From an uncultured bacterium (GTDB lineage: Bacteria; UBP15; UBA6099), in contig CAYPEK010000004.1 in the NCBI GenBank assembly GCA_964409645.1, forward strand, positions 6,135 through 70,134: a stretch of 64,000 nucleotides of DNA, given 5' to 3'. The number at the start of each line of letters is the position of its first letter. Positions within the stretch are counted from its first letter, which is position 1. The notes beneath the pieces were generated by a model. That model was not told the DNA's origin. It did not search any database and saw nothing but the letters and a program-made list of their open reading frames with translations. This document shows, piece by piece, positions 5,595-62,698 of this stretch. The translations under genes and the position numbers were made by a program.

Positions 5595-6173
5595 GTGAAC
5601 GTTTATTCAGCAATACAACGGCGGCGCACGATCCGGCGGTTCAAAGAAACGCCCATCTCGGAGGCGTCGCTTATAAAACTCGTCGATGTCGCCCGGCTTG
5701 CGCCCTCCGCGGGCAACCAGCAGCCGCTCGAATACGTCACGGTCAATTCGAAGGAAAAATGCAGCGCCGTGTTCCCGCTCCTCAAGTGGGCGCGGTTCAT
5801 CAAACCCGACGACACGCCGCCCGAGGGCAAGCGGCCCGGCGCATATATAATCGTTCTGATAAACAGAAGCATCGCGTCGAAAGGCGGTTCGCACGACGCG
5901 GGCGCGGCGGTGCAGAACATCATGCTCGCCGCGCTCGAGGACGATATCGGCTCGTGCTGGCTGCGAACGATCGACCGCTCGGCAATAAAGGAGCTGTTCG
6001 GCATCCCGGACCACGTCGAAGTGGACAGCGTGATCGCGCTCGGCAAGTCCGCCGAATCACCGATGACCGAAACCGCACGCAGCGAAAACATCGAATACTG
6101 GCGCGACGAACGCGGTCTGATGCACGTGCCGAAACGCAAAATCGACAACGTTCTTCACAAGGAAAAATACTGA
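5595..6173 (+). CDS. Nitroreductase family protein
   Basis: Opens with the family hallmark IQRRRTIRRFKETPISEASLIKLVDVARLAPSAGNQQPLEYVTV, followed by GSCWL. Confidence 0.85.
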   Translation: MNVYSAIQRRRTIRRFKETPISEASLIKLVDVARLAPSAGNQQPLEYVTVNSKEKCSAVFPLLKWARFIKPDDTPPEGKRPGAYIIVLINRSIASKGGSHDAGAAVQNIMLAALEDDIGSCWLRTIDRSAIKELFGIPDHVEVDSVIALGKSAESPMTETARSENIEYWRDERGLMHVPKRKIDNVLHKEKY

Positions 6174-23300: not shown

Positions 23301-23330
23301 CGAAAATTTTCTCATATCTTTTCTCCGCAA
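20322..23330 (-). CDS. Secreted glycoside hydrolase family 115 protein (xylan alpha-glucuronidase-like)
   Basis: Signal peptide. 1002 aa whose conserved blocks are YRGIFLNDEDFGLKPWAAKTY, LLLRLKANYMWPAMH and VNPDVTKVPQIFVPYKEVL. Their arrangement and the protein length match GH115. Confidence 0.65.
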   Translation of the reverse strand: MRRKDMRKFSVVFSAAILFTFLVVARGFASDLLAEKYAKGDFELAAGGKVADIYIDAADYKVVRIAADALAGDLEAVSGVKPRVSDSASGLGKNVVIIGTLEKCGAIKKLVADKKLDVSKIDGGWEMYLIAVVDKPMPGVETGLVVAGSDRRGAVFGAFELSAAAGVSPWVWWADVAPSKKASLVIKGGATVFGPPSVKYRGIFLNDEDFGLKPWAAKTYEPETGDIGPKTYAKMFELLLRLKANYMWPAMHKCTKAFNYYDKDKFVADDYAIVMGSSHCEQMLRNNVDEWDFAKYGEWSYVNNKENLLGYWDERVRVNGQFENVYTIGMRAIHDSAMPDGKTTEERVALLDRIIKDQREMLAKHVNPDVTKVPQIFVPYKEVLDIYWGGLKVPEDVTIVWPDDNFGYIRRLPTEEERKRPGGNGVYYHISYWGPPHDYLWLNTTPPALIWEEMNKAYAYGAQRLWVLNVGDLKPGEIGTELFLQMAWDIGSRNIFNIDKFLKEWAAREFGAEYAGDIADLMNEYYTLNYQRKPEHMGFYDKYQIGAQNSDPEFSLYTYGDEAQKRIDAFDGIEKKASVIYEKLPAEKKDAYYELVLYPVRGTSLMNKKHLYAYKSRRYTRQGRASADTYAVMAADAQKQLNGETEYYNETLAGGKWRHMMSDHPNDLPVFRDVKTGKAKPSDSSAIGVAIEGAGTPVEPVANSGAKASVLPQFNKFTKKSYFIDIFNRSSQPAEWKAVPVADWILLSKTSGKLGPDERIYVDVDFDKAPKGDNVEGTVKIAGAGSEYEVKLSVFNPGSLDIKGADFVQDNGVISINATNLRKMVSPIMYESEKMNIQPTLDDIESEFWNRIPGLGRTGASITVTPLSAPTLLDPAEIVKKAAGVEAFIYVFDAGEAKVNFEAIPTHEINAGRVLKVGVSIDEGTPVLVEFAQAHDEVNETGKKNVFRNMMEGSIKMKIDRGPHMLKVWGVDPSVILDKIIIDFGGLKKSYLGPEETRSRSY

Positions 23331-30944: not shown

Positions 30945-32105
30945 ATGCAAACGATCAAACCCCACGGCGGCGCCCTCATCAACCGTATGGCCGAAGGCGA
31001 CCTGCTCAAAGACCTGACCTCCCGCGCCCCCGGGATGGTCAAAATAAACATCAATAATAAGGAACTTTCCGACCTGCTGATGATCGCCATCGGCGGATTC
31101 AGCCCGTTGACCGGCTTCATGCGGAAAGCCGACTACGACAGCGTCGTCGATACGAAACACCTCTCGAACGGGCTGCCGTGGACGATCCCGATCACGCTTT
31201 CCTGCGACGATGCAACCGCGTCGAAACTGAAACCCGGCGACGACGCGGCACTGTACGACGGCGACGGCGTCCTTCGCGGCGTGCTGCACATCGACGAGAA
31301 ATACACTTACGACAAAAAGAGAGAAGCGACGAAAGTCTATAGAACCGACGACGGAGCACACCCCGGCGTCGCATTTGTTTACGCGCAGGGCGACACCCTC
31401 CTCGGCGGCGACGTGTGGATGGTCGAGCGGCCGCAGCCACCCGAGTTCCCGCAGTACTGGCGCGACCCGGCGGAGACGCGCCGCATCTTCGAGGAGCGCA
31501 ACTGGAAACGCGTCGTCGCGTTCCAGACGCGGAACCCCGTGCACCGCGCGCACGAGTATATCCAGAAAGTCGCGATGGAAATCTGCGACGGGCTCCTGCT
31601 CCACCCGCTCGTCGGCGAAACGAAAAAGGGCGACATCCCGGCGGACGTCCGCATGAAATGCTACGAAGTGCTGCTTGACAACTACTACCCGAAAGACCGC
31701 ACGCTGTTGAGCGTGCTGCCCGCCGCGATGCGCTACGCAGGCCCGGCGGAAGCCATATTCCACGCCATCATGCGCAAGAACTACGGCTGCACCCACTTCA
31801 TCGTCGGCCGCGACCACGCCGGTGTCGGCAACTACTACGGCTCGTTCGACGCGCATTACATCTTCGATGAATTCGACCCTGCCGCGATCGGCATCACGCC
31901 GCTCTTCTTCGACTACACGTTCTTCTGCTCGAAGTGCGGCGGCATGGCATCGAACAAAACATGCCCGCACGACGCGTCGCACCACATCTCGCTCTCCGGC
32001 ACCAAAGTGCGCGAGATGCTGGCGAACGGCGAAATCCCGCCTGTCGAGTTCACGCGCCCCGAAGTCGCCGAAGTGCTCATCGAATCGATGAAAAACAACG
32101 GCTGA
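30945..32105 (+). CDS. sat: Sulfate adenylyltransferase (ATP sulfurylase)
   Basis: [23 protein letters not shown], and PUA-like N-terminal domain [14 protein letters not shown]. Confidence 0.9.
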
Positions 32106-32167
32106 CAGGCCTACAACGATTTGTTGTTTTAAAATCAGAAATTCTAATCATGGAATATTACAGCTAT

Positions 32168-32192
32168 ATCCGTGTCTATCTGTGGTTCTTGC
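32168..32192. repeat. 25-bp direct repeat copy 1, ATCCGTGTCTATCTGTGGTTCTTGC
   Basis: It is an exact duplicate of 33208-33232. The two copies bracket an AT-rich 1015-bp segment. The repeat contains the heptads ATCCGTG and ATCTGTG spaced 10 bp apart. Confidence 0.9.
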
Positions 32193-32216
32193 AATGATAT
32201 AATATAACTATACAAT
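32189..32216 (+). promoter_or_regulatory. Putative sigma70-type promoter for the island gene: TTGCAA, 16-bp spacer, TACAAT
   Basis: The -35 element overlaps the end of repeat copy 1. The -10 element lies 22 nt upstream of ATG 32239. Confidence 0.35.
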
Positions 32217-32238
32217 TTCATATTGTGAGATTAGTAAA

Positions 32239-33168
32239 ATGACTGATGAAGAATTGATTAAAGAGATAAAAAGATTATTCGGGTCCAAGAGAATAACGCT
32301 CTTAAAAGCACTTCATGAATGTGCAGATAAAATACCCGTACAAGCAATGATTGAGCAAGAATTACAAAAAACAACGGGGCTGCATGTAAAATCATGTGTT
32401 GCGCTATCTGATGATACCCTGAAATGGATGTCTCAAAAGTCCAGTGACATTAAGAAGCTGAATTTCGATCCCGAAGACCGTTCCGAACTAATAGGAGATC
32501 CGAGTTTCTGGTTCCTTTTACTATTGAATAAGAATATAAAAGACCCTCTCGATTTCGATGAGAAGTTGGCGGAACGACACAACACTTTATTCTTTTGTGA
32601 AATCTGGGCAAGTATTCTTTTTCCTCTGTACACCTACGACATCTATTATTGGAAATATTCGAAAAAAGATAATATTCAGGAATTTGGCCCTTATAAGCCC
32701 CAAAAAAAGCACGAAGCAATTGCCGTTAATGACATGAAGAAGGCAATGAAAACATTCGGTTATAAATTAATATCGAAGAAAACAGCAAAAACAATAATCA
32801 GACAAGCTATAACGGATTGCGCGGAAAAAGGCGAGGCTACAGTTTTCGATTGTATCTTCAGCGATATGACATTTTATACGGAAACAAAATCACGGATGAA
32901 CATAGAAAGGAATGTTTATCCTGAGCTTGGAATGGAATGCAACTGGAGAGAATATTACGACAAAAAACATAAACTATATGAAAAAAAGATTTACATGCAA
33001 TTTTATGAAAGAGATGACGAGACCATCGTTATTGATTCTGAAGGCAGAATTAAAAAATTTGAGATAGGCTCAGGAAGTCACGCAAACATACCTTCCCAAT
33101 GGATCACTTACGATACCGATAAAAAGACCGGTTATCTTACCAGAAAAAAAGAAAAACACAAGGGATAA
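32239..33168 (+). CDS. Orphan hypothetical protein (309 aa, Lys-rich) on an AT-rich island
   Basis: The ORF is complete but its AT-rich composition clashes with the flanking genes. No family was recognised. Confidence 0.6.
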   Translation: MTDEELIKEIKRLFGSKRITLLKALHECADKIPVQAMIEQELQKTTGLHVKSCVALSDDTLKWMSQKSSDIKKLNFDPEDRSELIGDPSFWFLLLLNKNIKDPLDFDEKLAERHNTLFFCEIWASILFPLYTYDIYYWKYSKKDNIQEFGPYKPQKKHEAIAVNDMKKAMKTFGYKLISKKTAKTIIRQAITDCAEKGEATVFDCIFSDMTFYTETKSRMNIERNVYPELGMECNWREYYDKKHKLYEKKIYMQFYERDDETIVIDSEGRIKKFEIGSGSHANIPSQWITYDTDKKTGYLTRKKEKHKG

Positions 33169-33207
33169 ATCTGGATATAGTTTTCCCGAAATAGTAAGTG
33201 CTATTGA

Positions 33208-33232
33208 ATCCGTGTCTATCTGTGGTTCTTGC
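33208..33232. repeat. 25-bp direct repeat copy 2 (identical to 32168-32192)
   Basis: Exact match. It ends 8 nt from the glmM stop codon (33241-33243). Confidence 0.9.
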
Positions 33233-33240
33233 TTTGCTGG

Positions 33241-34614
33241 TCAGTTGACTTTGAGTTCTTTTTTGACTGTATTGAGGATTTCGTCGGTGCTGGCTTCGGC
33301 GATTTCTCGATCCCACGTTTCAACCATGACGCGTATCAGCGGTTCCGTGCCGGAGGGCCGCACGACAACGCGGCCGTTTTCGCCGAGGCGCTTTTCTATC
33401 TCCGCAACCTTTTTCTGTATCTTCGCGTTTTCGTAAAACGCTTCCCTGTTCGGGACTCTTATGTTCTTTAGAAACTGCGCCGAGCGCTTCATCTTCGTGA
33501 GTTCGGAGAACGGCTTTTTCAGCGCGGCGAAGTATTTCACCGTCTGAGCGGCGGTGATGAGCCCGTCGCCGGTTGTTGACAGGTCGAGAAAGATTATATG
33601 GCCGGACTGCTCGCCGCCGAGGTTGTAGCCGCCTGCGACCATCTCACGCATGACAAACTTGTCGCCTACCGCGGCGCGTATCATTTTACCACCGAGCTTC
33701 TTCAGCCCGAGCTCGAACCCCATGTTCGTCATCACCGTTGTGACAACCGTTTTCTTAGGCAGCCGGTTTTCCTTTATCATCTGTCCGGCGCAGAGAAGCA
33801 TTATCTGGTCGCCATCGACTATATTGCCTTTTTCGTCTATAAAAATCACGCGGTCGGCGTCGCCGTCGAAGGCGAATCCGAGCGCCGCGCCGTGCTTGAG
33901 CACCTTCTTCGCGAGTTTGTCCGGCCGCGTCGATCCGCAGTCAACGTTGATCTTCCTGCCGTCTTCATCCGCGTTGACGAACATGACGTCTTCCGCGACT
34001 TCTCTGAAGACACGCTTAGCGTATCTGGACGCCGCGCCGTTCGCGCAATCGATTATGATCCGGCCGTCGATGAACACGCCGCGCAGCAGCCGCCGTACGT
34101 ACGCGATGTAATTTGTCGCCATGTTGCCTTTGTCGAGCGAGGAGCCGACTTTGTCGCCGGACGGCAACTCAAGCGCATACGGCCCCTGCGCGATCAGCTT
34201 CTCGATCGCCCGCTCGTCTTCGTCTTCGAGCTTGCCGCCCTCGCCTGAGAAAACCTTAATGCCGTTGTCCTCGACCGGGTTGTGTGAGGCGGAGATCATG
34301 ATCCCGCAGTCGCAGCCGAGATTCGCCGTCAGGTACGCGAGTCCGGGCGTCGGGACGATGCCTATGCAAAGCGCGTCGCACCCGGCGGACGTGATACCCG
34401 CTACGAGCGCTGTTTCTATCATGTCGCCGGACACCCGCGTGTCCTTGCCGACAAGCACCCGTCCCGGCGTACCCTTCTTCACCGTGCACAGATGATGCGC
34501 GGCGCAGCGTCCGACCGCCAGAGCTATCTCCGCCGTGAGTTCCACATTCGCCACGCCACGTATGCCGTCGGTGCCGAACCGCACCGTATTTTTATTCTTT
34601 CCGTAAGTCGCCAT
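33241..34614 (-). CDS. glmM: Phosphoglucosamine mutase
   Basis: MATYGKNKNTVRFGTDGIRGVAN, active-site SASHNPVEDNGIKVF, GIVPTPG. Confidence 0.9.
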   Translation of the reverse strand: MATYGKNKNTVRFGTDGIRGVANVELTAEIALAVGRCAAHHLCTVKKGTPGRVLVGKDTRVSGDMIETALVAGITSAGCDALCIGIVPTPGLAYLTANLGCDCGIMISASHNPVEDNGIKVFSGEGGKLEDEDERAIEKLIAQGPYALELPSGDKVGSSLDKGNMATNYIAYVRRLLRGVFIDGRIIIDCANGAASRYAKRVFREVAEDVMFVNADEDGRKINVDCGSTRPDKLAKKVLKHGAALGFAFDGDADRVIFIDEKGNIVDGDQIMLLCAGQMIKENRLPKKTVVTTVMTNMGFELGLKKLGGKMIRAAVGDKFVMREMVAGGYNLGGEQSGHIIFLDLSTTGDGLITAAQTVKYFAALKKPFSELTKMKRSAQFLKNIRVPNREAFYENAKIQKKVAEIEKRLGENGRVVVRPSGTEPLIRVMVETWDREIAEASTDEILNTVKKELKVN

Positions 34615-43889: not shown

Positions 43890-44870
43890 ATGTTTGAGGA
43901 AACGCTGAAAATGCACAGCAAAGGTCAGACAGACCCGTCCAAATTCGAAGGCTGCCTGTTGGGGCTCGCGATCGGCGATGCGCTCGGCATGCCGTTCGAG
44001 GGCTGGCGCGCGTCGTCCATACGCAGTCGCCTCGGGCATGGCGTGGACGACTTCATGTCCAGCACCGAGCACGGCCTGCGCGCCGGACAGTGGACGGACG
44101 ACACGAAGATGGCGCTGCAACTTGCTCGCAGCATTATCCGCAGCAGCGGCCGTGTCGATCCTGAGGACATCGCCCGCGCGTACCTCGAATGGTTCGACTC
44201 CGGCGACCTGCGCGGCATCGGCCGCACGACCGCGGAATCCATACTGCGCCTGAAAAAGGGCGTCCCGTGGAGCGAGAGCGGCAAAGCAGGAGAGTATGCT
44301 GCCGGTAACGGAACCGCCATGCGCGTTGCGCCGATCGGGTTGCTGCATTGCAACAACTATGAAAAGATGCTCGAAGACGCGCGCGCGGACGCCGTCATCA
44401 CCCACAACAACCCGGAGGCGGTCGCGGGCAGCCAAGCGGTGGCGTTCTTCATCGCGCGCGGAGTCAACCAGCCAGACACCGGCGAGGCGCGGATCGACCT
44501 GATCGACGAGTGTGTAAAACTCATCGGGCCGTGCAAAGTTGCCGATAAGCTAATCCAAGCGGGCAAGATGCTGAAGGAAGGGCTCCCCGCCGGCACCGCC
44601 ATCGGCGCGCTCGGCACGGGAGGTTACGTCGTCGAGACAGTAGCGAGCGCCGTCTTCTGCTTCCTCAAGACGCCGGACAACTTCGAGGCCACCGTCACCG
44701 CCGCAGTGATGGGCGGCGACGACTCCGACACCACGGGCGCCGTCGCGGGCGCGATCTCGGGCGCGTGGAACGGCACGTGGGGCATCCCCCGCCGATGGAT
44801 CGAGCGCGTCGAGGACTCCGAAGAAATCCGCAGTATCGCCGGACGCCTCTTCAGCTTCCTTCAGAGCTGA
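43890..44870 (+). CDS. ADP-ribosylglycohydrolase family protein (DraG/ARH-like)
   Basis: GCLLGLAIGDALGMPFEG, QWTDDTKMALQLA, GNGTAMRVAPIG, GGDDSDTTGAVAGAISGAWNG (metal-binding Asp-rich motif). Confidence 0.85.
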   Translation: MFEETLKMHSKGQTDPSKFEGCLLGLAIGDALGMPFEGWRASSIRSRLGHGVDDFMSSTEHGLRAGQWTDDTKMALQLARSIIRSSGRVDPEDIARAYLEWFDSGDLRGIGRTTAESILRLKKGVPWSESGKAGEYAAGNGTAMRVAPIGLLHCNNYEKMLEDARADAVITHNNPEAVAGSQAVAFFIARGVNQPDTGEARIDLIDECVKLIGPCKVADKLIQAGKMLKEGLPAGTAIGALGTGGYVVETVASAVFCFLKTPDNFEATVTAAVMGGDDSDTTGAVAGAISGAWNGTWGIPRRWIERVEDSEEIRSIAGRLFSFLQS

Positions 44871-44911: not shown

Positions 44912-46285
44912 TTACTCGTCTTCGAGCATTCCATAGCGCTTCATTTTGTTATAGAGGGTGATGCGGGTAATGCCGAGGCGTTGCGCGGTCTTGTCGCGGC
45001 TGCCGTTGAATTCGCCGAGCACCGCACGGATGACTCGCGCCTCGTACTCCTCGACAGCCGTCTTGAGCGTAACCGTCTGCGGCAGGAAGTTCTTGAACTG
45101 CACCGGCGCGTCCGGCCGCGCGATCTTCGTCGGCAGGTTGCTTACCTGTATCTCTTTGCCGTGTGTCAGGATTACGACACGTTCGATGGTGTTTTCGAGT
45201 TCGCGCACATTGCCCGGCCAGTGGTACGCACATAGTTTCTCCATCGCCTCGTCGCTGATCACCGTGATGTCCCGCCGGTTTTCGCGCGCGTAACGTTCGA
45301 GAAACGCGTTCGCGAGAATCGGAACATCCTCCGGGCGCTCGCGCAGCGGCGGCAGGTGGATCGGTATGACGTTGATGCGGAAATAGAGATCGTCTCTGAA
45401 CTTGCCGGCCGCCACCGCTTTCTCCAGATCGACGTTAGTGGCGCAAATCAGCCGGATGTCCACGCTGATCCGTTTGTCGCCGCCGAGCCGCGTTATCTCG
45501 CGGTCCTGTATGACATTGAGCAATTTAGCCTGTGTTGCGAGCGAGAGGTTGCCCACCTCGTCGAGAAAAAGCACGCCGCCGCCTGCCTGCTCGAAGCGAC
45601 CGGCCTGACTGCTCGTCGCGCCCGTATAAGCGCCCTTCTCGTGGCCGAACAGTTCGCTTTCCAGCAACGTCTCCGGAAGCGCCGCGCAGTCAACTTTGAC
45701 GAACGGCTTGTCCTTCCGCGGGCTGCGCCGGTGCAGCGCGCGCGCGACGAGGTCCTTGCCGGTGCCCGTCTCGCCCTCTATCATCACGTTGGCTTCCGCG
45801 TCCGACACCGCCTCGATCCGCTCGAACACTTTACGCATCGCGAAGCTGCGCCCGATTATGTTGTCGAGTTCGTATTGTTTATTGAGCTGCCGCCGCAACT
45901 CTATGTTTTCGTCGAGCAGTTCGAGCCGGTTCGCTATCCGGTTCAGAACGATCTTCAACTCTTCCATCGAGCACGGCTTGAGTAGGTAATCCTCCGCGCC
46001 ACGCTTCATCGCCTCGACGGCATCCTCGACGGTGCCGTACCCGGTGAGGATGACCACGCCCGTGGACGGCGAAGCCTTCTTAATGCCGTTAAGCAACTCC
46101 ATTCCGCTCTCGCCGGGCAGGTTGACGTCCAGAACGGCTATGTCCGCGCCGTGCCGCGATAGAAGCTGCATCGCCTCCGCCGCGTCCGTCGCGGGAAGCA
46201 CCTCGTACCCCTCGTTCGCGAGGCACTCCGTCAGCGAATTGCGGACGAACGGATCGTCGTCCACCACGAGCACGGAACGCTTCAT
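44912..46285 (-). CDS. Sigma54-dependent response regulator (NtrC family: receiver, AAA+ domain, Fis-type HTH)
   Basis: VLVVDDDPFVRN, Walker A GETGTGKDLVARALH, sigma54-contact loop ESELFGHEKGAYTGA, and C-terminal HTH RDKTAQRLGITRITLYNKMKRYG. Confidence 0.9.
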   Translation of the reverse strand: MKRSVLVVDDDPFVRNSLTECLANEGYEVLPATDAAEAMQLLSRHGADIAVLDVNLPGESGMELLNGIKKASPSTGVVILTGYGTVEDAVEAMKRGAEDYLLKPCSMEELKIVLNRIANRLELLDENIELRRQLNKQYELDNIIGRSFAMRKVFERIEAVSDAEANVMIEGETGTGKDLVARALHRRSPRKDKPFVKVDCAALPETLLESELFGHEKGAYTGATSSQAGRFEQAGGGVLFLDEVGNLSLATQAKLLNVIQDREITRLGGDKRISVDIRLICATNVDLEKAVAAGKFRDDLYFRINVIPIHLPPLRERPEDVPILANAFLERYARENRRDITVISDEAMEKLCAYHWPGNVRELENTIERVVILTHGKEIQVSNLPTKIARPDAPVQFKNFLPQTVTLKTAVEEYEARVIRAVLGEFNGSRDKTAQRLGITRITLYNKMKRYGMLEDE

Positions 46286-47325
46286 GAGTCACCTCCGCCG
46301 TTCCCGCGGAGCGGCACCGAAACGGTGAAAACTGAACCTTCGCCGGTCTTGCTGGCAACCGAGATGCGGCCGCCGTGGTTCTCGACGACGCGGCGCGCGG
46401 TGTAAAGCCCGATGCCTGTGCCGAGGCCCTTCTTTTTCTTCGAGAAAAACATATCGAAAACGCGATGCAGGTCAGCCGCCGCGATGCCGTGGCCCGTGTC
46501 CCGCACCTCGATCTCCGCGTTGTCGCCCGCTAACCGGGTGCGCACCGTCAGCACACCGCCGTCCGGCATAGAGTCGAGCGCGTTTATCATCAGATTCAGA
46601 AACACCTCGTGAAGCCCCTCGCGGTCGAATCTCATGCTTTTCAGCAACGGATCGTACTCGCGGCGCACCTCGATGCGGAACTTCGCAGCTCGCGGTTCGA
46701 GCAGAGTGAGCGCCTTGTCGAGCTCGGTGTGGAGCGCGAGATCCGCCGGCTGCGGCGCTCGCGGCCGCGCGAGCTCGAGCAGTCCCGCCGTCACGCTCCG
46801 TATCTGTTTCACCGCGTCTTTTATCACACCGCAGTATTCCGCGGTCTTCGCGTCCCCTCCGGAACGCGCCATTATCAGATCGACATAGTTCGAGATGCCG
46901 AACAGCGGATTGTTCACGTCGTGCGCGATGCTCGCGGCGAGTTTGCCGGTTGTCACCAGCCGCTCCATCTCGACCATCCGGCTCTGCGTCCGCTCGATCA
47001 GGTGCATCATGTTATTGAACGTCTCGCCTATCTCGGTCATCGGATCACCCGCGAGGCTCTCCCTGTAAACGTCGCATGTCCGGCAGTCGAGCACCTCCTG
47101 CAGGCGGCAGCAGCCACCCTCCTCGGAAAACGTCCCCAGAAGCTGCCAGCACCGCACCCTCTCCTTGCCGTAGAGCGGGCATTTCTCTTTCTTCGCGCAC
47201 TCGGTCATCATCCAGCACGTTTTAATGTCGCGGTTTTCAAACCGCACGTCGGTGCCGCCCGCGAACGCCTTCTTCATCAGCGATGCGAGTTTCTCGTTGA
47301 CTTCGGTTATCTTCCGCGATTCCAT
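46282..47325 (-). CDS. Cytoplasmic histidine kinase with an N-terminal 8-Cys domain
   Basis: HisKA AASIAHDVNNPLFGISNYV and HATPase_c NLMINALDSM, DTGHGI, GLGTGIGLYTARRVVENHGG. N-terminal CWMMTECAKKEKCPLYGKERVRCWQLLGTFSEEGGCCRLQEVLDCRTC. No TM helices. It overlaps the regulator gene by 4 nt. Confidence 0.85.
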   Translation of the reverse strand: MESRKITEVNEKLASLMKKAFAGGTDVRFENRDIKTCWMMTECAKKEKCPLYGKERVRCWQLLGTFSEEGGCCRLQEVLDCRTCDVYRESLAGDPMTEIGETFNNMMHLIERTQSRMVEMERLVTTGKLAASIAHDVNNPLFGISNYVDLIMARSGGDAKTAEYCGVIKDAVKQIRSVTAGLLELARPRAPQPADLALHTELDKALTLLEPRAAKFRIEVRREYDPLLKSMRFDREGLHEVFLNLMINALDSMPDGGVLTVRTRLAGDNAEIEVRDTGHGIAAADLHRVFDMFFSKKKKGLGTGIGLYTARRVVENHGGRISVASKTGEGSVFTVSVPLRGNGGGDS

Positions 47326-47348
47326 CTTACCCTTGAATGCTTTCGTCG

Positions 47349-49682
47349 CTACTCAGCGGCCAAGCGGTTGAGCCTCAGCGTCATTGTCTCCGCGCCGCCG
47401 CCCGTTTGCGGCAACGCCTGTATCTCTTCCGTTTCAAGTTTATACGACACTCCGCCGTCAGGCGATTCTTTTTTCGAAAACTTTTTTTCCGCCATAATCC
47501 TGTCGAGCACGGCCGGCGCTTCAGCCGCCGCTTTCGTATCCGCGAACCGTACCGTCAGGCAAGTCGCCGCGCCGCACACGTAAATCAGTCCGCGCGATCC
47601 GCTTTTGAACCCGGCCCAATCCGCTTCGCCGAACGGATAGAAGTTGCGCGCCGTCAACGGGCCGGACACCAGCATCACCTTCTCGCGGTCAGCGCCCGCC
47701 GGTAAAACGGACAGTATCTCCGGACTGCCGCCTTCCCTCCCCGCCAGCTTCGAAATCCTGCGTGCGAAATCCTTCAGCACCGGCTTGTCCTCCGACTCGC
47801 CGCTGTATGTCAATTTTATGTAATACACCTTCTGCCACATCACGAGCTGCCCCTGCGAAGCCGTGCATCCGTCGCCGTAAGCGCACCGCTCGCCCTCCGG
47901 GTCGCGCTCGTACGAGAATATCCCGAACGCCGACTCGGGCGACGCCATCTCGAACACGTCCAGCGTGACCGACTCGTCGCCTTTCTCATAGTCGCGCGTC
48001 GCCGCCTGCGCGAATCCGTACTCGTAATAAATCTCCGCGCCGCCGTCGATGAACTCGAACAGCTTGTCCTGCGCGAACGTCATCGCCGCGCCCGCCGCCT
48101 TCCAGTCGCCGATTCTGTCGGGCAACAATCCTTTGAAGCCGTTCGTCGGGCCGGACGGAGTCTTTTTCGTCTGCGGCATCACTCCATCCACACGTATCGC
48201 CGCCGGGCCGGGCACCGGGCATTTCGATTCGCAAATCCCGCAGCCGATGCACTCACTTTTCACAACGTACGGCCGCTTGACCTGCACGTCGTTTCCGTTT
48301 TCGTCCTTCACCGTCTCCGTCTGCAAGCGGATCGCTTTCTCCGGCACAGGGCAATGCTCCTCGCAGACGATACAGTTCTCGGCGCGCGTCCACGGTATGC
48401 AGCGGTTGCGGTCCACCGTCGCGAGGCCGATCACAGTGAGATTCTTCGCCGCTTCATCGAGTTGCTTTATCGCACCCGATGGGCAGACGCTGCCGCAGAT
48501 CGTGCATCCGTAATCGCAATATCCGATTCGCGGAATCAGTTCGGGCGACCACAGCCCCTCGACGCCGTTGTCAAACCACGACGGTTGCAGTCCGTTCGTC
48601 GGGCACGCCCTCAGGCACAGCCCGCAGCGCACGCATGTCTGCATGAAGCGGTCCTCGTCGCCCGCGCCGGGCGGTCTGATGATGCCGCGCCGCCGCAGGC
48701 CGGTCGATATCCGCACGAACGGCACAGCCGCGAGGCCGAGAATCGCCGACGCGATGAACCCGCGCCTCGAAACGCTCACACCCATCTTCGCGGCGGCCGC
48801 GCTTCTCTTCACCGGACGGAAACTCACCGCGCTTTTCGGGCAGACACTCTTGCACGTGAAGCACTCTATGCACTCTCCGCGGTAGTCCTGCGTGCCGCCT
48901 TCGAGTATCGCTCCCATCCGGCAGTTGCGGACACACTTGTTGCAGTTGATGCACTTGTCGGTGTCCACGACCCGCTTGAAGACCGAGAACCGCGAAAAAA
49001 TCGCGAGTACCGCCCCGAGCGGGCACAAGTACCGACACCAGAAGCGCCGGTTTATATAGACGAGCAAGGCGATCCCGGCGAAGATGAGCGCCGTCGCCGC
49101 CAAGCCGTGAAATTGCTGTTGCTGAGGAGCAAATATAGTTGTTTTCAAGAAAGAATGCGCGCGCTCGGCAAGCGGGCCGACACCGCCGACCGGGTACAAA
49201 CCGCGAAAGATGAGATGCGCGACAAACTCGAACGACGGCAGTACGACCTGCGCGTAGAGCCGTGTCACGAACGAAAGCGGATCGAGCCAGCCAGCGAGGT
49301 TCGCCTCGAAGTAGGCGGCGACCAATGTGACGATCAGCAAACCGTATTTCAGGCTCTTCAGTCGAACCGGCCCGCGTGAATCGTCGCCCGGCCTCGGCCT
49401 CAGCGCCTTGTCGGTCGCGTCGAACGTGATGCCCATCGGGCATATCCAGCCGCAGAAGAAGCGGCCGAACACAAGAGTAAGCAGAAGCAAGACCCCTGAG
49501 ATTGCAAACGCGTGGATGAACCTGCCGGTATTAAGCCACGTCGCAACCGCCTGAAACGGACTGAGCTGCACGTAAGTATTCAGCAGCTCCGGCGGCAGCA
49601 GCAGCGGATAAACTGTCAGAGATAAAAGCGCGACGAAAAACAAAAGAGAAACTATCTGAATAATCCTTCTGAGTAAAATCAT
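47349..49682 (-). CDS. Membrane-anchored polyferredoxin (NapH/MauN-like N-terminal TM domain, six 4Fe-4S motifs, ~260-aa C-terminal domain of unknown function)
   Basis: FCGWICP and WCRYLCP motifs in the TM region. Cys clusters CINCNKCVRNC, CIECFTCKSVCP, CVRCGLCLRACP, CTICGSVCP, CIVCEEHCP and CIGCGICESKCP. Confidence 0.75.
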   Translation of the reverse strand: MILLRRIIQIVSLLFFVALLSLTVYPLLLPPELLNTYVQLSPFQAVATWLNTGRFIHAFAISGVLLLLTLVFGRFFCGWICPMGITFDATDKALRPRPGDDSRGPVRLKSLKYGLLIVTLVAAYFEANLAGWLDPLSFVTRLYAQVVLPSFEFVAHLIFRGLYPVGGVGPLAERAHSFLKTTIFAPQQQQFHGLAATALIFAGIALLVYINRRFWCRYLCPLGAVLAIFSRFSVFKRVVDTDKCINCNKCVRNCRMGAILEGGTQDYRGECIECFTCKSVCPKSAVSFRPVKRSAAAAKMGVSVSRRGFIASAILGLAAVPFVRISTGLRRRGIIRPPGAGDEDRFMQTCVRCGLCLRACPTNGLQPSWFDNGVEGLWSPELIPRIGYCDYGCTICGSVCPSGAIKQLDEAAKNLTVIGLATVDRNRCIPWTRAENCIVCEEHCPVPEKAIRLQTETVKDENGNDVQVKRPYVVKSECIGCGICESKCPVPGPAAIRVDGVMPQTKKTPSGPTNGFKGLLPDRIGDWKAAGAAMTFAQDKLFEFIDGGAEIYYEYGFAQAATRDYEKGDESVTLDVFEMASPESAFGIFSYERDPEGERCAYGDGCTASQGQLVMWQKVYYIKLTYSGESEDKPVLKDFARRISKLAGREGGSPEILSVLPAGADREKVMLVSGPLTARNFYPFGEADWAGFKSGSRGLIYVCGAATCLTVRFADTKAAAEAPAVLDRIMAEKKFSKKESPDGGVSYKLETEEIQALPQTGGGAETMTLRLNRLAAE

Positions 49683-49707
49683 CCGCCCGCCCTTTTCGCC
49701 TTATCGT

Positions 49708-49748
49708 ATCCGTGTTTATCTGTGTCCATCCGTGATTCCACGTTCTTG
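49708..49748. repeat. Third, expanded copy of the ATCYGTG phased-heptad element (ATCCGTG/ATCTGTG/ATCCGTG at exact 10-bp spacing, ending GTTCTTG)
   Basis: Deleting 17 bp (49725-49741) gives a 24/25 match to the 25-bp island repeat. It lies 25-65 bp upstream of the polyferredoxin start codon, on the opposite strand. Confidence 0.7.
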
Positions 49749-49759
49749 TTTCTATGTTT

Positions 49760-50713
49760 TCACACGTTGATTTCTTTCAGCGCCGCCGGCTCGATTTTTC
49801 CGAGCCCCATCCCGGCGGCAATCGTTATGTGTGCAATGTCATTCAGGTCGGCGCCGAACAGCTTCGCGGCGTACGCATCCGCCGAAACGATGTCGGTGGA
49901 CACCGCGACAGTTTTCGCCTCCCGGACATCAGCGGCGCTGCCGCCCTGCGGGCCGTGCGCTTTCAGAATGCGGAACGCGTCTATCACAACGAGGTCCGGC
50001 TTGATCGCAAGCTGCACGTCCGCGATGCGCTGATCGAGCTGGCCGACATGCCATGCGCCCCTGTCGCCGCCCGCTATCCCCATCAGATTCTTCATTCCCG
50101 CCGTTATACCCGTCGCACTGTGATGTTTCAAAATCGGCACGTTTATAAACACGTCGCACTCCAGCGCGTCTTTGTACAGCATCCACTCCTTCAGCGCCTT
50201 CGCTCCGGGGACGTCCACGTTGATATATCGGGCCTCGTCCATGAACGATACCTTCGCGCCCGCCTTCTCCGCCGCGGCGGCAATTCCGCTCCGCTTGTAC
50301 GTGCGCCGCTCGGGGTTGCACGGCCGGTCGAAAACGCGAACCTCCTTCGCGCCCGCCTCGATCGCCATCGCCACCAGCGCGGCCACAACCGCCGGGTTCG
50401 TGTTCGCCGCCTGTTCCGGCGTGCGGTCCCAGCCGATATTCGGTTTCACCACGACGATGTCGCCTTTTTTGACGAGCTTCTTCATACCACCCGCCGCGTC
50501 AACCGCCGCACGCGTCAGCTTCGCCGGATCGTCCGACCCGCGCGCGACGAACACGCCCTTCTTCAATCCGTTCGCCCGTTTCTCCCTTGGTCCGCTCTTC
50601 AGCGTCCGCGAAAAACCGCGCTTGCAGCCGGCGGTCAGCCCCAGTCCGTAAAAAGCAAGCCCCGCAGCGGCAGCGCGTCCGAAAAATTCCCGTCTTGTTA
50701 TCCTATCATTCAT
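49760..50713 (-). CDS. Tat-signal DUF362-family protein
   Basis: Twin-arginine motif TRREFFGRAAAAGLAF. DUF362-like core KKGDIVVVKPNIGWD...PILKHHSATGITAGMKNLMG. Confidence 0.65.
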   Translation of the reverse strand: MNDRITRREFFGRAAAAGLAFYGLGLTAGCKRGFSRTLKSGPREKRANGLKKGVFVARGSDDPAKLTRAAVDAAGGMKKLVKKGDIVVVKPNIGWDRTPEQAANTNPAVVAALVAMAIEAGAKEVRVFDRPCNPERRTYKRSGIAAAAEKAGAKVSFMDEARYINVDVPGAKALKEWMLYKDALECDVFINVPILKHHSATGITAGMKNLMGIAGGDRGAWHVGQLDQRIADVQLAIKPDLVVIDAFRILKAHGPQGGSAADVREAKTVAVSTDIVSADAYAAKLFGADLNDIAHITIAAGMGLGKIEPAALKEINV

Positions 50714-50805
50714 AGCAGTAACCTCTATTCAGACTTTTAACAATTATAATAATAAATACCGTCCAACACTCAAAGGTTCATTTTTTATCCTTATGCTTTT
50801 GAAAG

Positions 50806-52251
50806 TTAAGCCCATTCCGCGCGAATACCGATGCGGCGCGCGGCGGCCGCGAGGTCTTCGGCGCTCAGCCGCGACTCGACCGGATCGGCGTTCATCTCGC
50901 TGAACGAGCGCACACGGCGTCCGAAATCCGTTATGTAGCTCATATCGCAGGGAAAACGATCGGGGTCGATGCCGAACAAAACAGGTTTCGCGCCTCGCGT
51001 CATCAGCTCCGTCCATTTGCCGAGCGGCACCATGTCGAACGGGTCGGCGAGCGACGGGTGCAGAGTGAGCAGGCACCGGATATCCTTCGGCAGCTTCGCA
51101 AGCATGCGGGCGGCGAAATCGAACGACCGGTCGCAGTAGTACGGCAGCCAGAGAGGCAGCCAGCGCGAGCGGAGGTTAGCCCACGGATCGAGCTGGTTGA
51201 AACAGTCCGCGAACACATACGACGGCTCGACGCCGTCCCGCCGCGACGCATCAATATGCAACTCCAGCGCGAGCTCGCTGAACTTCTCCGGATGATCCGC
51301 TGTTAGCGTCAGTAGTGGTATTCCCTTCCGGGCCGCGTACTCCCGCACCGCTTCCGAAAACTCAGGCATCGCGCCCCATTCCGACTCCGGCATTTTTTCG
51401 AGCGGATAGCGCGCACCCTTCAAACGCCAGCCGCCCGTGCGCGTTCGCGCGCCTCCCTGCCGCAGCCTGTACTCCCGCAGCCGTTCGCTGCCTTCGAGAT
51501 ACTCCTCGTCCGGAATTCCGCCGAGGCCGCCGATCTGGAACGACACGCGCGGCCGCACCCTGTATTGCAGCCACGAATATTCGCAGTTGATGAGCACGAT
51601 CACGCCGTCGTGCGACAGGTTCCGCGCGACGAACGATTCGTACGCGCGCGGCATCGAGATCAGCTTCGCGCGCACGTGGTTGATGAATAGCAACACCGGC
51701 CTGTCGTGCACGGGATCGTAGTGCACCACCGCGTGGACGCCGGGGTTGTTGCGGGCGATCTCGGAAGCGAGCCGCCGCGCGCGCATCGCCGTCGTGTAAA
51801 CATCGTCCACGTTACGCAGATCGTTGAAGCAGATCAGGAAATGTGTCGTGAGGAAAGGCGCGTCGAGAACGGAGCCGATGTGGCTCACGCCGCCGCTCGG
51901 CGCGCCCAATATTATCGTTTTGTATTCCCTCTGCGGAAAAAGCGACGCGGCCCACGCGGCCATGTCATCCGCATCGACGGCGCCCGCGGACGCCTGCGGC
52001 GTTCCGATGCGGCCCTCCGCGAACCGGATGGCGGCCCGCGCCGCGCCGTGCGGAACCCAAGAAAGAAAGCGCGACACGCTCCGCTCGAAAAAGCCGAGCC
52101 GGAACATGTCGAAATGCTCGCCGCGCAAAGCGGACGCCAGCGCCCTCATCTGCGCCGCTGAGGAATCCGACTTCTCGACGTAGAACGGCATATAAACAGC
52201 ATGGGTCAGGCCATGAATTGGGAATTGAGTTGGTTCATTTCGCAGTCTCAC
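50806..52251 (-). CDS. Hypothetical protein (481 aa)
   Basis: The long ORF has codon composition like its neighbours. No family was recognised. The start is either GTG 52251 or ATG 52192 (MPFYVEK). Confidence 0.5.
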   Translation of the reverse strand: MRLRNEPTQFPIHGLTHAVYMPFYVEKSDSSAAQMRALASALRGEHFDMFRLGFFERSVSRFLSWVPHGAARAAIRFAEGRIGTPQASAGAVDADDMAAWAASLFPQREYKTIILGAPSGGVSHIGSVLDAPFLTTHFLICFNDLRNVDDVYTTAMRARRLASEIARNNPGVHAVVHYDPVHDRPVLLFINHVRAKLISMPRAYESFVARNLSHDGVIVLINCEYSWLQYRVRPRVSFQIGGLGGIPDEEYLEGSERLREYRLRQGGARTRTGGWRLKGARYPLEKMPESEWGAMPEFSEAVREYAARKGIPLLTLTADHPEKFSELALELHIDASRRDGVEPSYVFADCFNQLDPWANLRSRWLPLWLPYYCDRSFDFAARMLAKLPKDIRCLLTLHPSLADPFDMVPLGKWTELMTRGAKPVLFGIDPDRFPCDMSYITDFGRRVRSFSEMNADPVESRLSAEDLAAAARRIGIRAEWA

Positions 52252-59933: not shown

Positions 59934-60140
59934 CCTTAACCACCGCTCAGATGTCCGCACCGGACATCGCCATTCCAATCCGAATATTATATTGAATGAG
60001 GCGGCGGAAAGCAAAAAAGTAAGTCCGCATTCAAATCAAACAGACATCAAAATGGCTTTCCGGCGCTCGCAAAGCATATTCGCGATGTGCCGCCCGGCAA
60101 AAAAAGCTCCGTCAAAAACAAATTTATTTTTAAAACTGCT

Positions 60141-60166
60141 TAAGTTTTTCTCCTACCCGCCGATTC
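60141..60166 (+). promoter_or_regulatory. Sigma28 (FliA)-type promoter candidate: TTAAGTTT, 11 nt spacer, GCCGATTC
   Basis: This fits the consensus TAAAGTTT-N11-GCCGATAA with a perfect GCCGAT core and exact spacing. It lies ~70 nt upstream of ATG 60236. Confidence 0.45.
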
Positions 60167-60235
60167 CATATAACATAGTATTTATTATTATCATTGATTG
60201 TATTTTACCAACAAATTAATTGAGGAGTGAACGCC

Positions 60236-62698
60236 ATGTCGATACTTAATAGTCTGTCCGGCCTTTCAACAAACAGTCTTCTGATTTCGAATAAAAACTC
60301 GGCGGCTTCAAGCAAAAAAAACGGACTTTTCAGCAAATCAGCGGCCGCCAAGACAAATGCAAGCTACAAAGCAACCATTTCATCCAACGTGGATTCACTT
60401 AGCACGCTCATCGGTCAGGTGGACAGCGAACTCTCCGTTTTCACTGCGACAAGCTCCCTGACGAAAAACATCAACTTCAGCTCAGCATTCAAAAGCGCGT
60501 TTTCCAACTCGGCGTTCAACCAATCCTCATTTTCTCTAACGCCTCAAACCGCCTCACAGAAGATCACAAGTCTCGCAAAGAATATCGTCGATACCGCATC
60601 GAGCACCAACAACCTCCCGTCGTCTCAGAAAATCAAACTACTGCTCGCTGTCATGAACCTGATCGACAAAGCCTTCACAAGCACGAAAGATATCTACAAT
60701 TCGATGAACCTTTATTCCGGCTATAACGCACAAAGCCTCCAGCAGACGCAATCACTCACCTCTCAAAATCTGACCAGCTACCTGAACTCTCTAACAACAT
60801 CCACCTCGTCCGGCACGGCTACCGGAACGACTACGGGCGCCACAACCGGAACAGCCGGTACAACAACAGGAACAACTCCCACGCAGCCCCCCAATACACA
60901 AACAACAACACAATCAACACCCTCCTCGATCCTCAGCGATCCGAATGCTCAGAAAGCACTCGAAACGCTCAAAAACAGCGATTATTTCTATTTTGGGTCG
61001 GGAACAATGGCCTTACAATATCCAATAGATGGGATAATTGACAATATTCATTTTAGTAACCAATTACAAACCGATATAAATGGTATCCAGCATGTTATTT
61101 CCGTATCGCTTGAAACCAATACAGTAATGCTCGATTACGGGACACAAACATTCGGTAATTTTTTCGGTAATTTAACTGAAGCAAGTAAATATATTGATAC
61201 CGCACAGCAAGCAACTATTTTAGATTCATCCGGTCAAACACATACAATACAGGGCGTATTTGCAAATGGAACAGTGACCGACACTGTTGTTGACGGTGTT
61301 ACAATGAACTCGCAGGAACTCGTGAATTGGGCTTCGAGTGCAGGTTTGGCGGCCAATACCTATACAATCTCTTCCGGCCAACAAATAACCGAGTACCACG
61401 CAACAACTCAGTCGCCTTATGGAAGTTCTGATGCAATTATCGCAGCGACTGTGGACGGACAGGCGCTTAACCGCCAAGAGTATCTTATAGACCACAGAAG
61501 ATATAGTAACGCTCCTAATTGGCCCGCCGTTTCCGGTTATGTTGAAACTCCTTCCGGTAATTATGTTTATTTAGACGAAAATATGGTTGCCGGCCAAGCA
61601 ACGATTAACGGAACTTCGGTAACCGATCAGCAGCTTGTCAACTGGGCAAAACAGGAAGGCCTTGAGACAAAATCTTATGACATCGCCGGGAATCAAGTTA
61701 ACGAATATTATGCCAGTTTTGTCACATCATTAGGTACAAAGAAAATCCGAATCGCAGCAGAAGTGAACGGAATCGTTTGCAACAGCCTAAATTGGGTCAA
61801 CTCTTCTGGATCGCAATTATTTTTTTCTGAAAACACCGCAACTATCGAAGATGCTTCGGGCAATTACATTACAACCGGCCTCTGGAAAACATGGTACGAC
61901 GTACAGACGGCCCAAGTAGAAGAAAGCTTGTTTTCAATTAATGGAATGGTCCTTACTAATGAGCAGGATAATATCGACTGGGCTAAAAATAACAATCTTT
62001 ACAACAGAACCCTTACTGTAAACGGCAAAAATGTAACAGAATATTACATCTATGACACAAGTCAAACTGACAAAAACATATTAAATTTATTTGCGGTTGA
62101 AGTTGATGGAACTGCTTATTCTATCAGTGATTATGTAAATTCGGCATACAAAGCGCCGGATTTGACCTTAACAGCCAGCCCGATTGTGCTTGATCTCACG
62201 GGGAATGGAATCGAATCGGTCAGTGCGGAACAGGGAGTTCAGTTCGACCTCCTCGGGACGGGCCAAAAGGTGCAGACCGGCTGGGTGAGCCCGGGCGCGG
62301 CCTTCCTCGCCCTCGACAAGGACAACAGCGGCTCGATCGAGAGCGGCAAGGAGCTGTTCGGCAACCAGAGCGGCGCCGCCAACGGCTACGAGGAACTCGC
62401 AAAATACGACGAGAATAACGACGGCGTCATAAACGCCTCCGACTCCATCTACAACAAGCTCCTTCTGTGGCAGGATACCAACATGAACGGCGTGAGCGAC
62501 ACCGGCGAACTAAGCAGCCTCGCCGACACCGGCGTCTCATCCATCAACGTCAACTACAATACCGTCTCCGAAACGGTGACGGGCGGCAACCAGATACGCC
62601 AACGCTCGTTCTTCACTTTTGAAAACGGCACAACGGGCAACACCGCCGATATCTGGTTCCGCTACAACGCGTTTTCGGCATATGTCAACGTCGCCTGA
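60236..62698 (+). CDS. Ser/Thr/Asn-rich 820-aa mosaic protein: no signal peptide, Thr-rich linker, three ~55-aa internal repeats, C-terminal module with three DxDxDG-type Ca2+-binding loops
   Basis: SD GAGGAG 11 nt before ATG 60236. Coding DNA 60236-62200 is AT-rich, and the last ~500 bp are native high-GC. Repeats VTDQQLVNWAKQEGLETKSYDIAGNQVNEYY, MNSQELVNWASSAGLAANTYTISSGQQITEYH and LTNEQDNIDWAKNNNLYNRTLTVNGKNVTEYY. Ca2+-loop motifs DKDNSGSIE, DENNDGVINASD and DTNMNGVSDTGE. Confidence 0.65.
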   Translation: MSILNSLSGLSTNSLLISNKNSAASSKKNGLFSKSAAAKTNASYKATISSNVDSLSTLIGQVDSELSVFTATSSLTKNINFSSAFKSAFSNSAFNQSSFSLTPQTASQKITSLAKNIVDTASSTNNLPSSQKIKLLLAVMNLIDKAFTSTKDIYNSMNLYSGYNAQSLQQTQSLTSQNLTSYLNSLTTSTSSGTATGTTTGATTGTAGTTTGTTPTQPPNTQTTTQSTPSSILSDPNAQKALETLKNSDYFYFGSGTMALQYPIDGIIDNIHFSNQLQTDINGIQHVISVSLETNTVMLDYGTQTFGNFFGNLTEASKYIDTAQQATILDSSGQTHTIQGVFANGTVTDTVVDGVTMNSQELVNWASSAGLAANTYTISSGQQITEYHATTQSPYGSSDAIIAATVDGQALNRQEYLIDHRRYSNAPNWPAVSGYVETPSGNYVYLDENMVAGQATINGTSVTDQQLVNWAKQEGLETKSYDIAGNQVNEYYASFVTSLGTKKIRIAAEVNGIVCNSLNWVNSSGSQLFFSENTATIEDASGNYITTGLWKTWYDVQTAQVEESLFSINGMVLTNEQDNIDWAKNNNLYNRTLTVNGKNVTEYYIYDTSQTDKNILNLFAVEVDGTAYSISDYVNSAYKAPDLTLTASPIVLDLTGNGIESVSAEQGVQFDLLGTGQKVQTGWVSPGAAFLALDKDNSGSIESGKELFGNQSGAANGYEELAKYDENNDGVINASDSIYNKLLLWQDTNMNGVSDTGELSSLADTGVSSINVNYNTVSETVTGGNQIRQRSFFTFENGTTGNTADIWFRYNAFSAYVNVA

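Follow-up and report, generated by a model that had tools for sequence, protein, structure and literature searches.

A conserved DUF6599–DUF362 gene pair with a recurrent polyferredoxin partner: a possible periplasm-facing electron-delivery module in an uncultured bacterium

A 64,000-bp stretch of DNA from an uncultured bacterium of the GTDB lineage UBP15; UBA6099 (GenBank assembly GCA_964409645.1, contig CAYPEK010000004.1, positions 6,135 to 70,134 of the forward strand; the whole stretch analyzed is hereafter the window) encodes a cluster of four genes: those for a DUF362 protein, a membrane polyferredoxin with a large C-terminal domain, a cysteine-rich histidine kinase and a sigma54-dependent regulator. 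A first-pass annotation, made from the sequence of the window, had proposed that the four constitute a single module. Our analysis identifies a different unit: DUF6599, the C-terminal domain of the polyferredoxin, together with a DUF362 protein exported by the twin-arginine translocation (Tat) pathway. The polyferredoxin is a recurrent third module, joined to this pair by fusion or by adjacency, and a single lineage has the kinase and regulator in addition. The linkage among DUF6599, DUF362 and polyferredoxin is more interesting than the four-gene module. We interpret polyferredoxin and DUF6599 as a module that delivers electrons to DUF362 on the periplasmic side, with a regulatory add-on in one lineage, and put the probability of this reading at about 0.5.

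The C-terminal domain had been described as novel, ∼260 aa long and of no recognized family. Residues 525–682 nevertheless match Pfam PF20244 (DUF6599) with a score of 110.4 bits (threshold 27, E = 1e-31), and public homologues of the polyferredoxin are annotated as ‘DUF6599 family protein’. The first-pass annotation had also suggested a structure prediction of this domain: AlphaFold2 (AF2) returned a confident model (predicted local distance difference test (pLDDT) 86, predicted template-modeling score (pTM) 0.83) comprising two alpha/beta subdomains, with weak fold matches only in the PDB. A sequence-profile search of DUF6599 against the PDB gave nothing relevant, and the searchable literature holds no mention of the family. 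The conserved residues are aromatic or glycine (LP..W, NGGAE.Y..Y and AFG). No Cys or His is conserved, which argues that DUF6599 is not a redox domain; we propose that it is a docking or adaptor module for DUF362.

The linkage was analyzed by scanning one genome per species with the DUF6599 profile, which yielded 80 loci from Bacteroidota, Calditrichota, KSB1, Aminicenantes/Acidobacteriota, Nitrospirota, Latescibacterota, Fidelibacterota, WOR-3, Sumerlaeota, Gemmatimonadota, NC10 and Planctomycetota. Neighboring genes were typed with locally built hidden Markov models on six-frame open reading frames (ORFs). Of particular interest are loci in which DUF6599 stands alone as a protein of about 300 aa with an N-terminal signal peptide: in 37 of 43 such loci, from at least ten phyla, the immediate same-strand downstream gene encodes Pfam DUF362. 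Nearly all of these downstream proteins have a twin-arginine motif, and Pfam TAT_signal matches 13 of the 43. Upstream neighbors belong to mutually unrelated families (DUF362 in one of 40), and in distant lineages the pair is flanked by housekeeping genes, without a further conserved partner.

DUF6599 also occurs fused to the polyferredoxin, as it does in the window. A homologue search with the polyferredoxin recovered two forms: one of ∼770–830 aa that includes DUF6599 and is found in the source clade and in anammox and other Planctomycetota, and a commoner one of ∼510–545 aa that does not include it. Among 24 non-redundant fused loci with enough upstream sequence, DUF362 lies directly upstream in 10, including those of Scalindua-type Planctomycetota. 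The modules are also found split: in locus L015, DUF6599, DUF362 and a 523-aa polyferredoxin follow one another in a row; in L008, a DUF6599, a short polyferredoxin, a second DUF6599 (with a lipoprotein signal) and two DUF362 proteins are encoded by separate genes. The tie between DUF362 and polyferredoxin drawn by the first-pass annotation is thereby extended to distant lineages. Adjacency in 37 of 43 loci, combined with fusion to and fission from the polyferredoxin, therefore defines DUF6599 plus Tat-exported DUF362 as the robust conserved unit. The pairing of a polyferredoxin fused to DUF6599 with an exported DUF362 is undescribed in the searchable literature.

The polyferredoxin combines a NapH-like first half (TIGR02163 NapH/MauN, E = 2.8e-24; NapH, 85 bits against a cut-off of 234) with a NapG-like second half (NapG NF007012, E = 3.6e-27, 95 bits against a cut-off of 269; MauM/NapG, E = 3.4e-22); scores below the NCBIfam equivalog cut-offs place it outside the NapG and NapH equivalogs. 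Hydropathy defines transmembrane segments at residues 1–34, 52–85, 115–133 and 190–212. The motifs CGWICP (C77/C81) and CRYLCP (C216/C220), from which a NapH/MauN-type anchor had been recognized in the first pass, sit at the cytoplasmic ends of transmembrane segments and match Fer4_5. Six CxxCxxCxxxCP motifs had also been counted: six four-Cys motifs are indeed present, of which no more than four are spaced as CxxCxxCxxxC (in one of these the next residue is R, not P); the other two, Cx3Cx2Cx3CP and Cx8Cx2Cx3CP, are NapG-like variants. The periplasmic motifs are C350–360, C389–400, C428–444 and C478–488. Both a fifth transmembrane segment (TMD5) and a twin-arginine had been missed: the stretch that holds them reads SRRGFIASAILGLAAVPFV, then RISTGLRRRG. 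TMD5 is weakly hydrophobic (hydropathy 1.78 versus 2.42 for the first segment), and the [RK]R preceding it is conserved in homologues, as RR in the source clade and most short forms and as KR in Brocadiaceae-type sequences. The KR lineages (proteins P0018, P0020 and P0051; loci such as L053, L058 and L068) are the same ones that have no adjacent DUF362.

Tooke et al. (2017, eLife; PMC5449189) described NapH–NapG fusions inserted by both the general secretory (Sec) and Tat pathways, with a twin-arginine before a weak TMD5 and positive charges after it. Reporters placed downstream of all five segments were Tat-exported in that study, the accessible sections of which mention no physiological partner or function. 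All sequence features of the family are present in the polyferredoxin of the window, and on this evidence we assign it to the NapH–NapG fusions of the dual Sec/Tat-inserted type. Its best reading is a membrane-spanning electron-transfer unit, in keeping with the unit across the inner membrane that the first-pass annotation envisaged.

The DUF362 protein matches Pfam PF04015 along the entire profile (positions 1–200 of 200, 183.5 bits, gathering threshold 24, E = 6e-54). The Tat signal already noted at its N-terminus reads TRREFF, with the RR pair invariant in 20 homologues. A lipobox cysteine, Cys30, had been overlooked; it is conserved, and for this reason DUF362 in the source clade is probably a Tat-exported lipoprotein. 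Residues invariant over 35 homologues include K90-P-N92, H198, K208-N209, H222 and D279. When the AF2 model (pLDDT 91) was compared with the PDB by Foldseek, all 19 matches at E ≤ 0.001 were LarA-superfamily or LarA-like structures (18 named LarA, Mar2 or LarA-like, plus 4nar), with E-values of 9e-8 to 1e-5, a probability of 1.0 and template-modeling (TM) scores of about 0.45–0.50. DUF362 is accordingly best described as modeling with the fold of LarA, the nickel-pincer racemase, which agrees with the placement of DUF362 and LarA (DUF2088) in one Pfam clan (PMC11770544). Elsewhere DUF362 is often fused to Fe-S domains, and extracellular DUF362 fused to CBM9 and dockerin is found in lignocellulose-degrading consortia (PMC5742341); the searchable literature that mentions the family gives no function for it. 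Tandem divergent DUF362 paralogues stand next to polyferredoxin/DUF6599 genes in L011 (6358–7386 and 7408–8349) and L008 (8545–9531 and 9591–10499).

Correspondence at the level of residues was sought with a LarA profile built from six full larA genes taken from plasmids, the motif IESH(174)FFAGFSGGRK(184)...H(200) having been confirmed from PDB 5HUQ. In three of three hhalign runs H198 of DUF362 fell on H174 and K208 on K184; statistically these alignments are weak (P = 0.047, 9e-4 and 0.0066; probability 1–23%). With the most diverse DUF362 alignment the His/Lys motif was the single best local match to LarA (P = 9e-4, probability 23%). An hhalign comparison with a 31-aa LarA fragment was uninformative.

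Positions of the genes and their features are given in Table 1. The four genes were reported as consecutive, co-directional and separated by short or overlapping junctions, and the ORFs lie exactly where they had been placed: the DUF362 and polyferredoxin genes are 77 bp apart, the polyferredoxin and kinase genes 23 bp, and an ATGA is shared between the stop of the kinase gene and the start of the regulator gene. No strong terminator was found between any of the four.

Table 1. Positions in the window of the cluster genes, their domains and neighboring features.
Feature	Position	Strand	Length	Basis or remark
DUF362 gene	49760-50713	-	317 aa	Pfam DUF362
Polyferredoxin gene	47349-49682	-	777 aa	NapH-NapG fusion + DUF6599
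NapH-like membrane anchor (aa 1-230)	48993..49682	-		Hydropathy, Cys positions, Fer4_5, NapH/MauN TIGR02163
Two putative cytoplasmic [4Fe-4S] motifs (C244-C254, C271-C281)	48828..48971	-		Cys map, Pfam
Internal twin-arginine SRRGFIAS + TMD5 + positive patch RISTGLRRRG	48678..48776	-		Hydropathy, homologues
NapG-like domain, predicted periplasmic, four [4Fe-4S] motifs	48198..48665	-		NapG NF007012, Cys map
DUF6599 domain + second alpha/beta subdomain (aa 520-777)	47352..48125	-		PF20244, AF2 model
Histidine kinase gene	46282-47325	-	347 aa	HisKA + HATPase_c
Two-CW-like Cys-rich domain of kinase (aa 26-110)	46996-47250	-		phmmer relatives, NF045718
Sigma54 regulator gene	44912-46285	-	457 aa	Response_reg + Sigma54_activat + HTH_8
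Sigma70-like promoter candidate, TTGAGT-16-TATTAT, upstream of DUF362	50746..50773	-		Beside a box conserved in relatives
Upstream co-directional protein	50806-52191	-	461 aa	92 bp upstream of DUF362; module membership doubtful

The upstream 461-aa gene (listed as a 481-aa ORF when started at an upstream GTG) has no match in Pfam, NCBIfam or the PDB. It adjoins DUF362 in the closest clade only and is absent in L005, L010 and L011. Because it is missing wherever the DUF362–polyferredoxin pair occurs outside the closest clade, we rejected it as a core member.

The kinase consists of an N-terminal helix, a Cys-rich domain, a HAMP-like IGETFNNMM helix, HisKA (H135) and HATPase_c. Hydropathy revealed no hydrophobic segment, so that the protein appears soluble, as had been noted. 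The eight Cys reported in 45 residues are all present, although they span 48 (residues 37–84); all are invariant in three relatives of 63–100% identity. The first-pass annotation had treated this region as a dedicated redox or cluster sensor. A word-index homologue search with the N-domain alone found no relatives. Exhaustive phmmer with residues 1–125 found 498 among 1.84 billion representatives (E ≤ 1e-3, best E = 1e-35), comprising histidine kinases and GGDEF, HD, PAS and GAF proteins, and 61 of the 69 best match the NCBIfam two-CW domain, NF045718. C37, C43, C49, C59, W60 and C84 are invariant over 69–80 relatives. The window kinase itself scores 13.5 bits against NF045718 (cut-off 35, E = 0.069, residues 36–89), in part because the GTFC cysteine is replaced by Ser and a CC pair is present at 72–73 instead. 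Sequence comparison thus casts the region as a divergent member of the two-CW domain, which is widespread and not peculiar to this locus; no paper on this domain was found in the searchable literature. The regulator is of the NtrC/AtoC type (Response_reg 103 bits, Sigma54_activat 240 bits, HTH_8 46 bits) and is complete as a sigma54 activator, with GETGTGKD, GAYTGA and a Fis-type helix-turn-helix.

Conservation of the gene arrangement, on which the four-gene proposal turned, divides the cluster in two. In relatives with 98%, 67% and 59% polyferredoxin identity the 461-aa gene is followed by DUF362, polyferredoxin, kinase and regulator, as in the window, and the flanks are retained as well (PhoH, 7TM-HD, YbeY and DAGK upstream, ADP-ribosylglycohydrolase downstream). 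Since these flanking housekeeping genes are syntenic too, linkage of kinase and regulator in relatives at or above 59% could be simple inheritance. At 49% identity the DUF362–polyferredoxin pair persists and the kinase and regulator are gone: the pair withstands the comparison, whereas the four-gene arrangement fails at 49% and below. Both regulatory genes are absent at L005, L010, L011, L061, L070, L076 and L077, all of which have the DUF362–polyferredoxin pair, and among DUF6599 loci the two-CW kinase is restricted to the source clade. Kinase and regulator are a lineage-specific addition.

Eleven Planctomycetota loci have a sigma54 activator ∼4 kb downstream of the polyferredoxin–DUF6599 gene (L006, L058, L060, L061, L064, L068, L070, L076, L077, L085 and L088). 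We considered this as a link to the module and rejected it: the arrangement (rpsO-pnp-csp-HK-RR) probably reflects conserved local order, and the kinase is not of the two-CW type. L006 has rpsO, pnp, a cold-shock gene and a gene for a histidine kinase in the interval.

Promoters for sigma54 were sought with the consensus allowing up to 2 mismatches and with a GG-N10-GC scoring scan, the latter repeated in relatives. No GG-N10-GC site in the window scores 11 or more of 12, and sigma54-like matches are fewer than in shuffles (33 versus 54 expected). There is no credible -24/-12 site in the cluster, the window or the loci of relatives, and none is conserved near the module, which bears out the earlier failure to see one within the locus. 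The candidate TGGCGTCCGCTTTGC at 52125–52139 (minus strand), sigma54-like and conserved in L004, was rejected because it falls within the 461-aa coding region. Its counterpart in L004, the 59%-identity relative, is TGGCATCCGCTTTGCA (5629–5644), and the resemblance of both to the consensus probably reflects coding constraint. Beside the sigma70-like candidate upstream of DUF362 is a TATAAT-like box, TTATAATTG, which an intergenic alignment shows to be conserved in relatives. Kinase and regulator are probably co-transcribed with the pair from a sigma70-type promoter, and the sigma54 target regulated by the activator probably lies elsewhere.

Other features of the window deserve brief mention. 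Convergent with the regulator gene is an ADP-ribosylglycohydrolase gene (43890–44870, plus strand). Two tandem genes (8237–11089 and 11130–13982, minus strand) encode 950-aa paralogues that each combine a CHASE2 sensor domain with an adenylate/guanylate cyclase domain. At 20322–23330 is a gene for a GH115 family glycoside hydrolase and at 26182–29028 one for a PQQ-like beta-propeller protein, both on the minus strand. Islands of low GC content (0.44 versus 0.53–0.63 in the rest of the window) lie at about 32000–34000 and 60000–62000; an 823-aa ORF at 60227–62698 (plus strand) has no Pfam match.

How might such a system work? Experiments on a member of the dual-targeted family (PMC5449189) suggest that Sec would insert the four-helix anchor and the two cytoplasmic [4Fe-4S] clusters of the polyferredoxin, and that the internal twin-arginine and TMD5 would then hand the pre-folded four-cluster NapG-like domain, with DUF6599, to Tat. 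The six clusters could form a chain carrying electrons from a quinol site or the cytoplasmic face to the periplasm. DUF362 would fold in the cytoplasm, probably loaded with a cofactor, be exported by Tat and, in the source clade, become lipid-anchored. Adjacency across phyla, fusion and fission suggest that DUF6599, tethered by the polyferredoxin, recruits DUF362. The latter would be the catalytic end-point, with a LarA-like pocket, possibly a Lys-tethered cofactor, and a periplasmic substrate; electrons from the NapG-like clusters may make it a terminal reductase or may reductively activate its own cofactor. In the source clade only, the two-CW kinase and sigma54 activator would be appended downstream.

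A number of observations weigh against this scheme. Fourteen of the 24 fused loci, mostly Brocadiaceae-type, have no adjacent DUF362, and most standalone DUF6599–DUF362 pairs have no polyferredoxin within 10 kb, which means that electron supply may not be a general requirement. Fold matches of DUF6599 in the PDB are weak (TM score about 0.3, to TP0453, TiME and the PknH ectodomain). The weakness of the DUF362–LarA residue register also counts: the alignments end before H222/H200, so that none covers H222, which lies 14 residues after K208 where LarA has a spacing of 16; His108 of LarA falls on the invariant Tyr139 of DUF362, in a low-confidence stretch; neither the full DUF362 profile nor a motif-region profile retrieved LarA from the PDB; the 64-kb window has no homologue of larA, larB or larC; and the cofactor-biosynthesis genes larB, larC and larE are present neither there nor in the fetched loci. 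The most specific form of the scheme, in which DUF362 is a Tat-exported enzyme with a Lys-tethered nickel-pincer-type (or related) cofactor, docked on DUF6599 and wired to the quinone pool via the six-cluster polyferredoxin, we regard as unlikely. A close rival, possible but in our view rather less than probable, is that DUF362, as a LarA-like isomerase or epimerase, carries out a redox-neutral reaction on an extracytoplasmic hydroxy acid or sugar acid, the polyferredoxin serving only to re-reduce or activate an oxidation-sensitive cofactor. A role of this kind has been proposed for NosR toward NosZ and for the NapH-like RdhC toward reductive dehalogenases. An accessory donor of this kind fits the many DUF6599–DUF362 pairs without a nearby polyferredoxin better than an obligatory one does; the fold and His/Lys register of DUF362, the racemization and epimerization of 2-hydroxy acids by the LarA superfamily (PMC11770544), the CBM9–dockerin fusions (PMC5742341) and the GH115 glucuronidase-family enzyme encoded in the window point the same way. 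Yet no substrate-related gene is consistently adjacent (upstream neighbors are random and the flanks housekeeping), six clusters and a membrane anchor would be a heavy investment for occasional repair, and the DUF362 family is without any established cofactor.

The original proposal – one dedicated four-gene module, in which the 8-Cys kinase senses redox or Fe-S state and the sigma54 activator controls the unit or a substrate pathway – draws on the tight spacing (the polyferredoxin and kinase genes overlap by 4 bp in L002, and kinase and regulator overlap here), on gene order kept down to 59% polyferredoxin identity and on the invariance of all eight Cys in those relatives. We judge it unlikely: the same relatives share their entire flanking order, which makes conservation there uninformative; kinase and regulator are absent at all more distant DUF362–polyferredoxin loci; no -24/-12 promoter lies in or near the cluster, matches across the window are fewer than chance, and the conserved box before DUF362 is sigma70-like; and hundreds of unrelated signaling proteins carry a two-CW domain. 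Less probable still is that the DUF6599–DUF362 pair serves export, assembly or envelope binding, the polyferredoxin fusion being an incidental accretion without electron transfer to DUF362. This would account for the missing cofactor ligands of DUF6599, for its weak fold matches, which are to ligand-binding proteins associated with the envelope (TP0453, TiME and the PknH sensor domain), and for the pairs that lack a nearby polyferredoxin. It sits poorly with the recurrence of the fusion in two distant groups and the occurrence of the same three modules as separate, adjacent genes (L008 and L015), which together speak for functional coupling, and also with the use of Tat by DUF362, export by this route usually marking a cofactor-containing folded protein. 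The frequent fusion of DUF362 proteins to Fe-S domains (PMC5742341) likewise tells against it.

Electron delivery to DUF362 remains the reading we prefer, and the neighborhood result has consequences of its own. DUF362 is a large family and DUF6599 is present in many phyla; the dual Sec/Tat polyferredoxins came to notice in 2017 as a curiosity of membrane biogenesis (PMC5449189). The neighborhood result joins all three into one system. Should the LarA-like site of DUF362 prove to hold a pincer-type cofactor, the reach of organometallic nickel-pincer chemistry would come to include the periplasm and electron-transfer chains; a nickel-pincer DUF362 wired in this manner would represent, within the LarA superfamily, the first branch that is both periplasmic and coupled to electrons, and would provide a function for three orphan families – DUF362, DUF6599 and the dual Sec/Tat polyferredoxins. 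As a minimal example of an uncharacterized Cys-rich sensor domain that recurs in hundreds of signaling proteins, the kinase is tractable: it has a single sensor domain and lacks membrane segments.

The closest known counterpart of the polyferredoxin is PFD of delta proteobacterium MLMS-1 (Q1NSB0; PMC5449189), which likewise has five transmembrane segments with two CX3CP motifs, two [4Fe-4S] motifs on the cytoplasmic side and four on the periplasmic side, and a twin-arginine directly before a weak TMD5 with positive charges after it; the protein in the window has in addition a periplasmic DUF6599 domain of ∼260 aa, and its gene is partnered by one for DUF362. The kinase can be set beside NF045718, with which it shares CW...C...CP...RCWQ..GT...C..C ahead of the HAMP-like FNNMM helix, differing in its sub-threshold score, its GTFC serine and its CC pair. 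For DUF362 the comparison is with LarA (PDB 5HUQ): the predicted fold and the Pfam clan are the same, and a His-x9-Lys motif may, by weak alignment, be in register with His174/Lys184. DUF362 is shorter (317 versus about 425 aa), is predicted to be exported by Tat and lipid-anchored, does not match Pfam DUF2088, and seems to depart from LarA in the two further positions described above (Tyr139 for H108, and the spacing of the second His).

Two systems bear on the assembly as a whole. The NapGH quinol dehydrogenase of E. coli and Wolinella succinogenes has a homologous membrane anchor and Fe-S domains, and probably the same logic: electrons from the quinol pool are passed to a periplasmic enzyme. 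In the window the two subunits are fused and score far below the equivalog cut-offs, and no napA, napB or napC, nor any molybdoenzyme or cytochrome gene, is found near the polyferredoxin. Tooke et al. (PMC5449189) cite MsrPQ (YedYZ), in which a membrane quinol-oxidizing subunit feeds a periplasmic repair reductase, as the split counterpart of the second family that they describe as dual-targeted. Its heme b and molybdopterin cofactors and its folds are unrelated to those considered here, and the likeness is an analogy only; what is shared is the architectural principle of pairing a membrane electron donor, inserted by Sec, with a Tat-exported cofactor enzyme.

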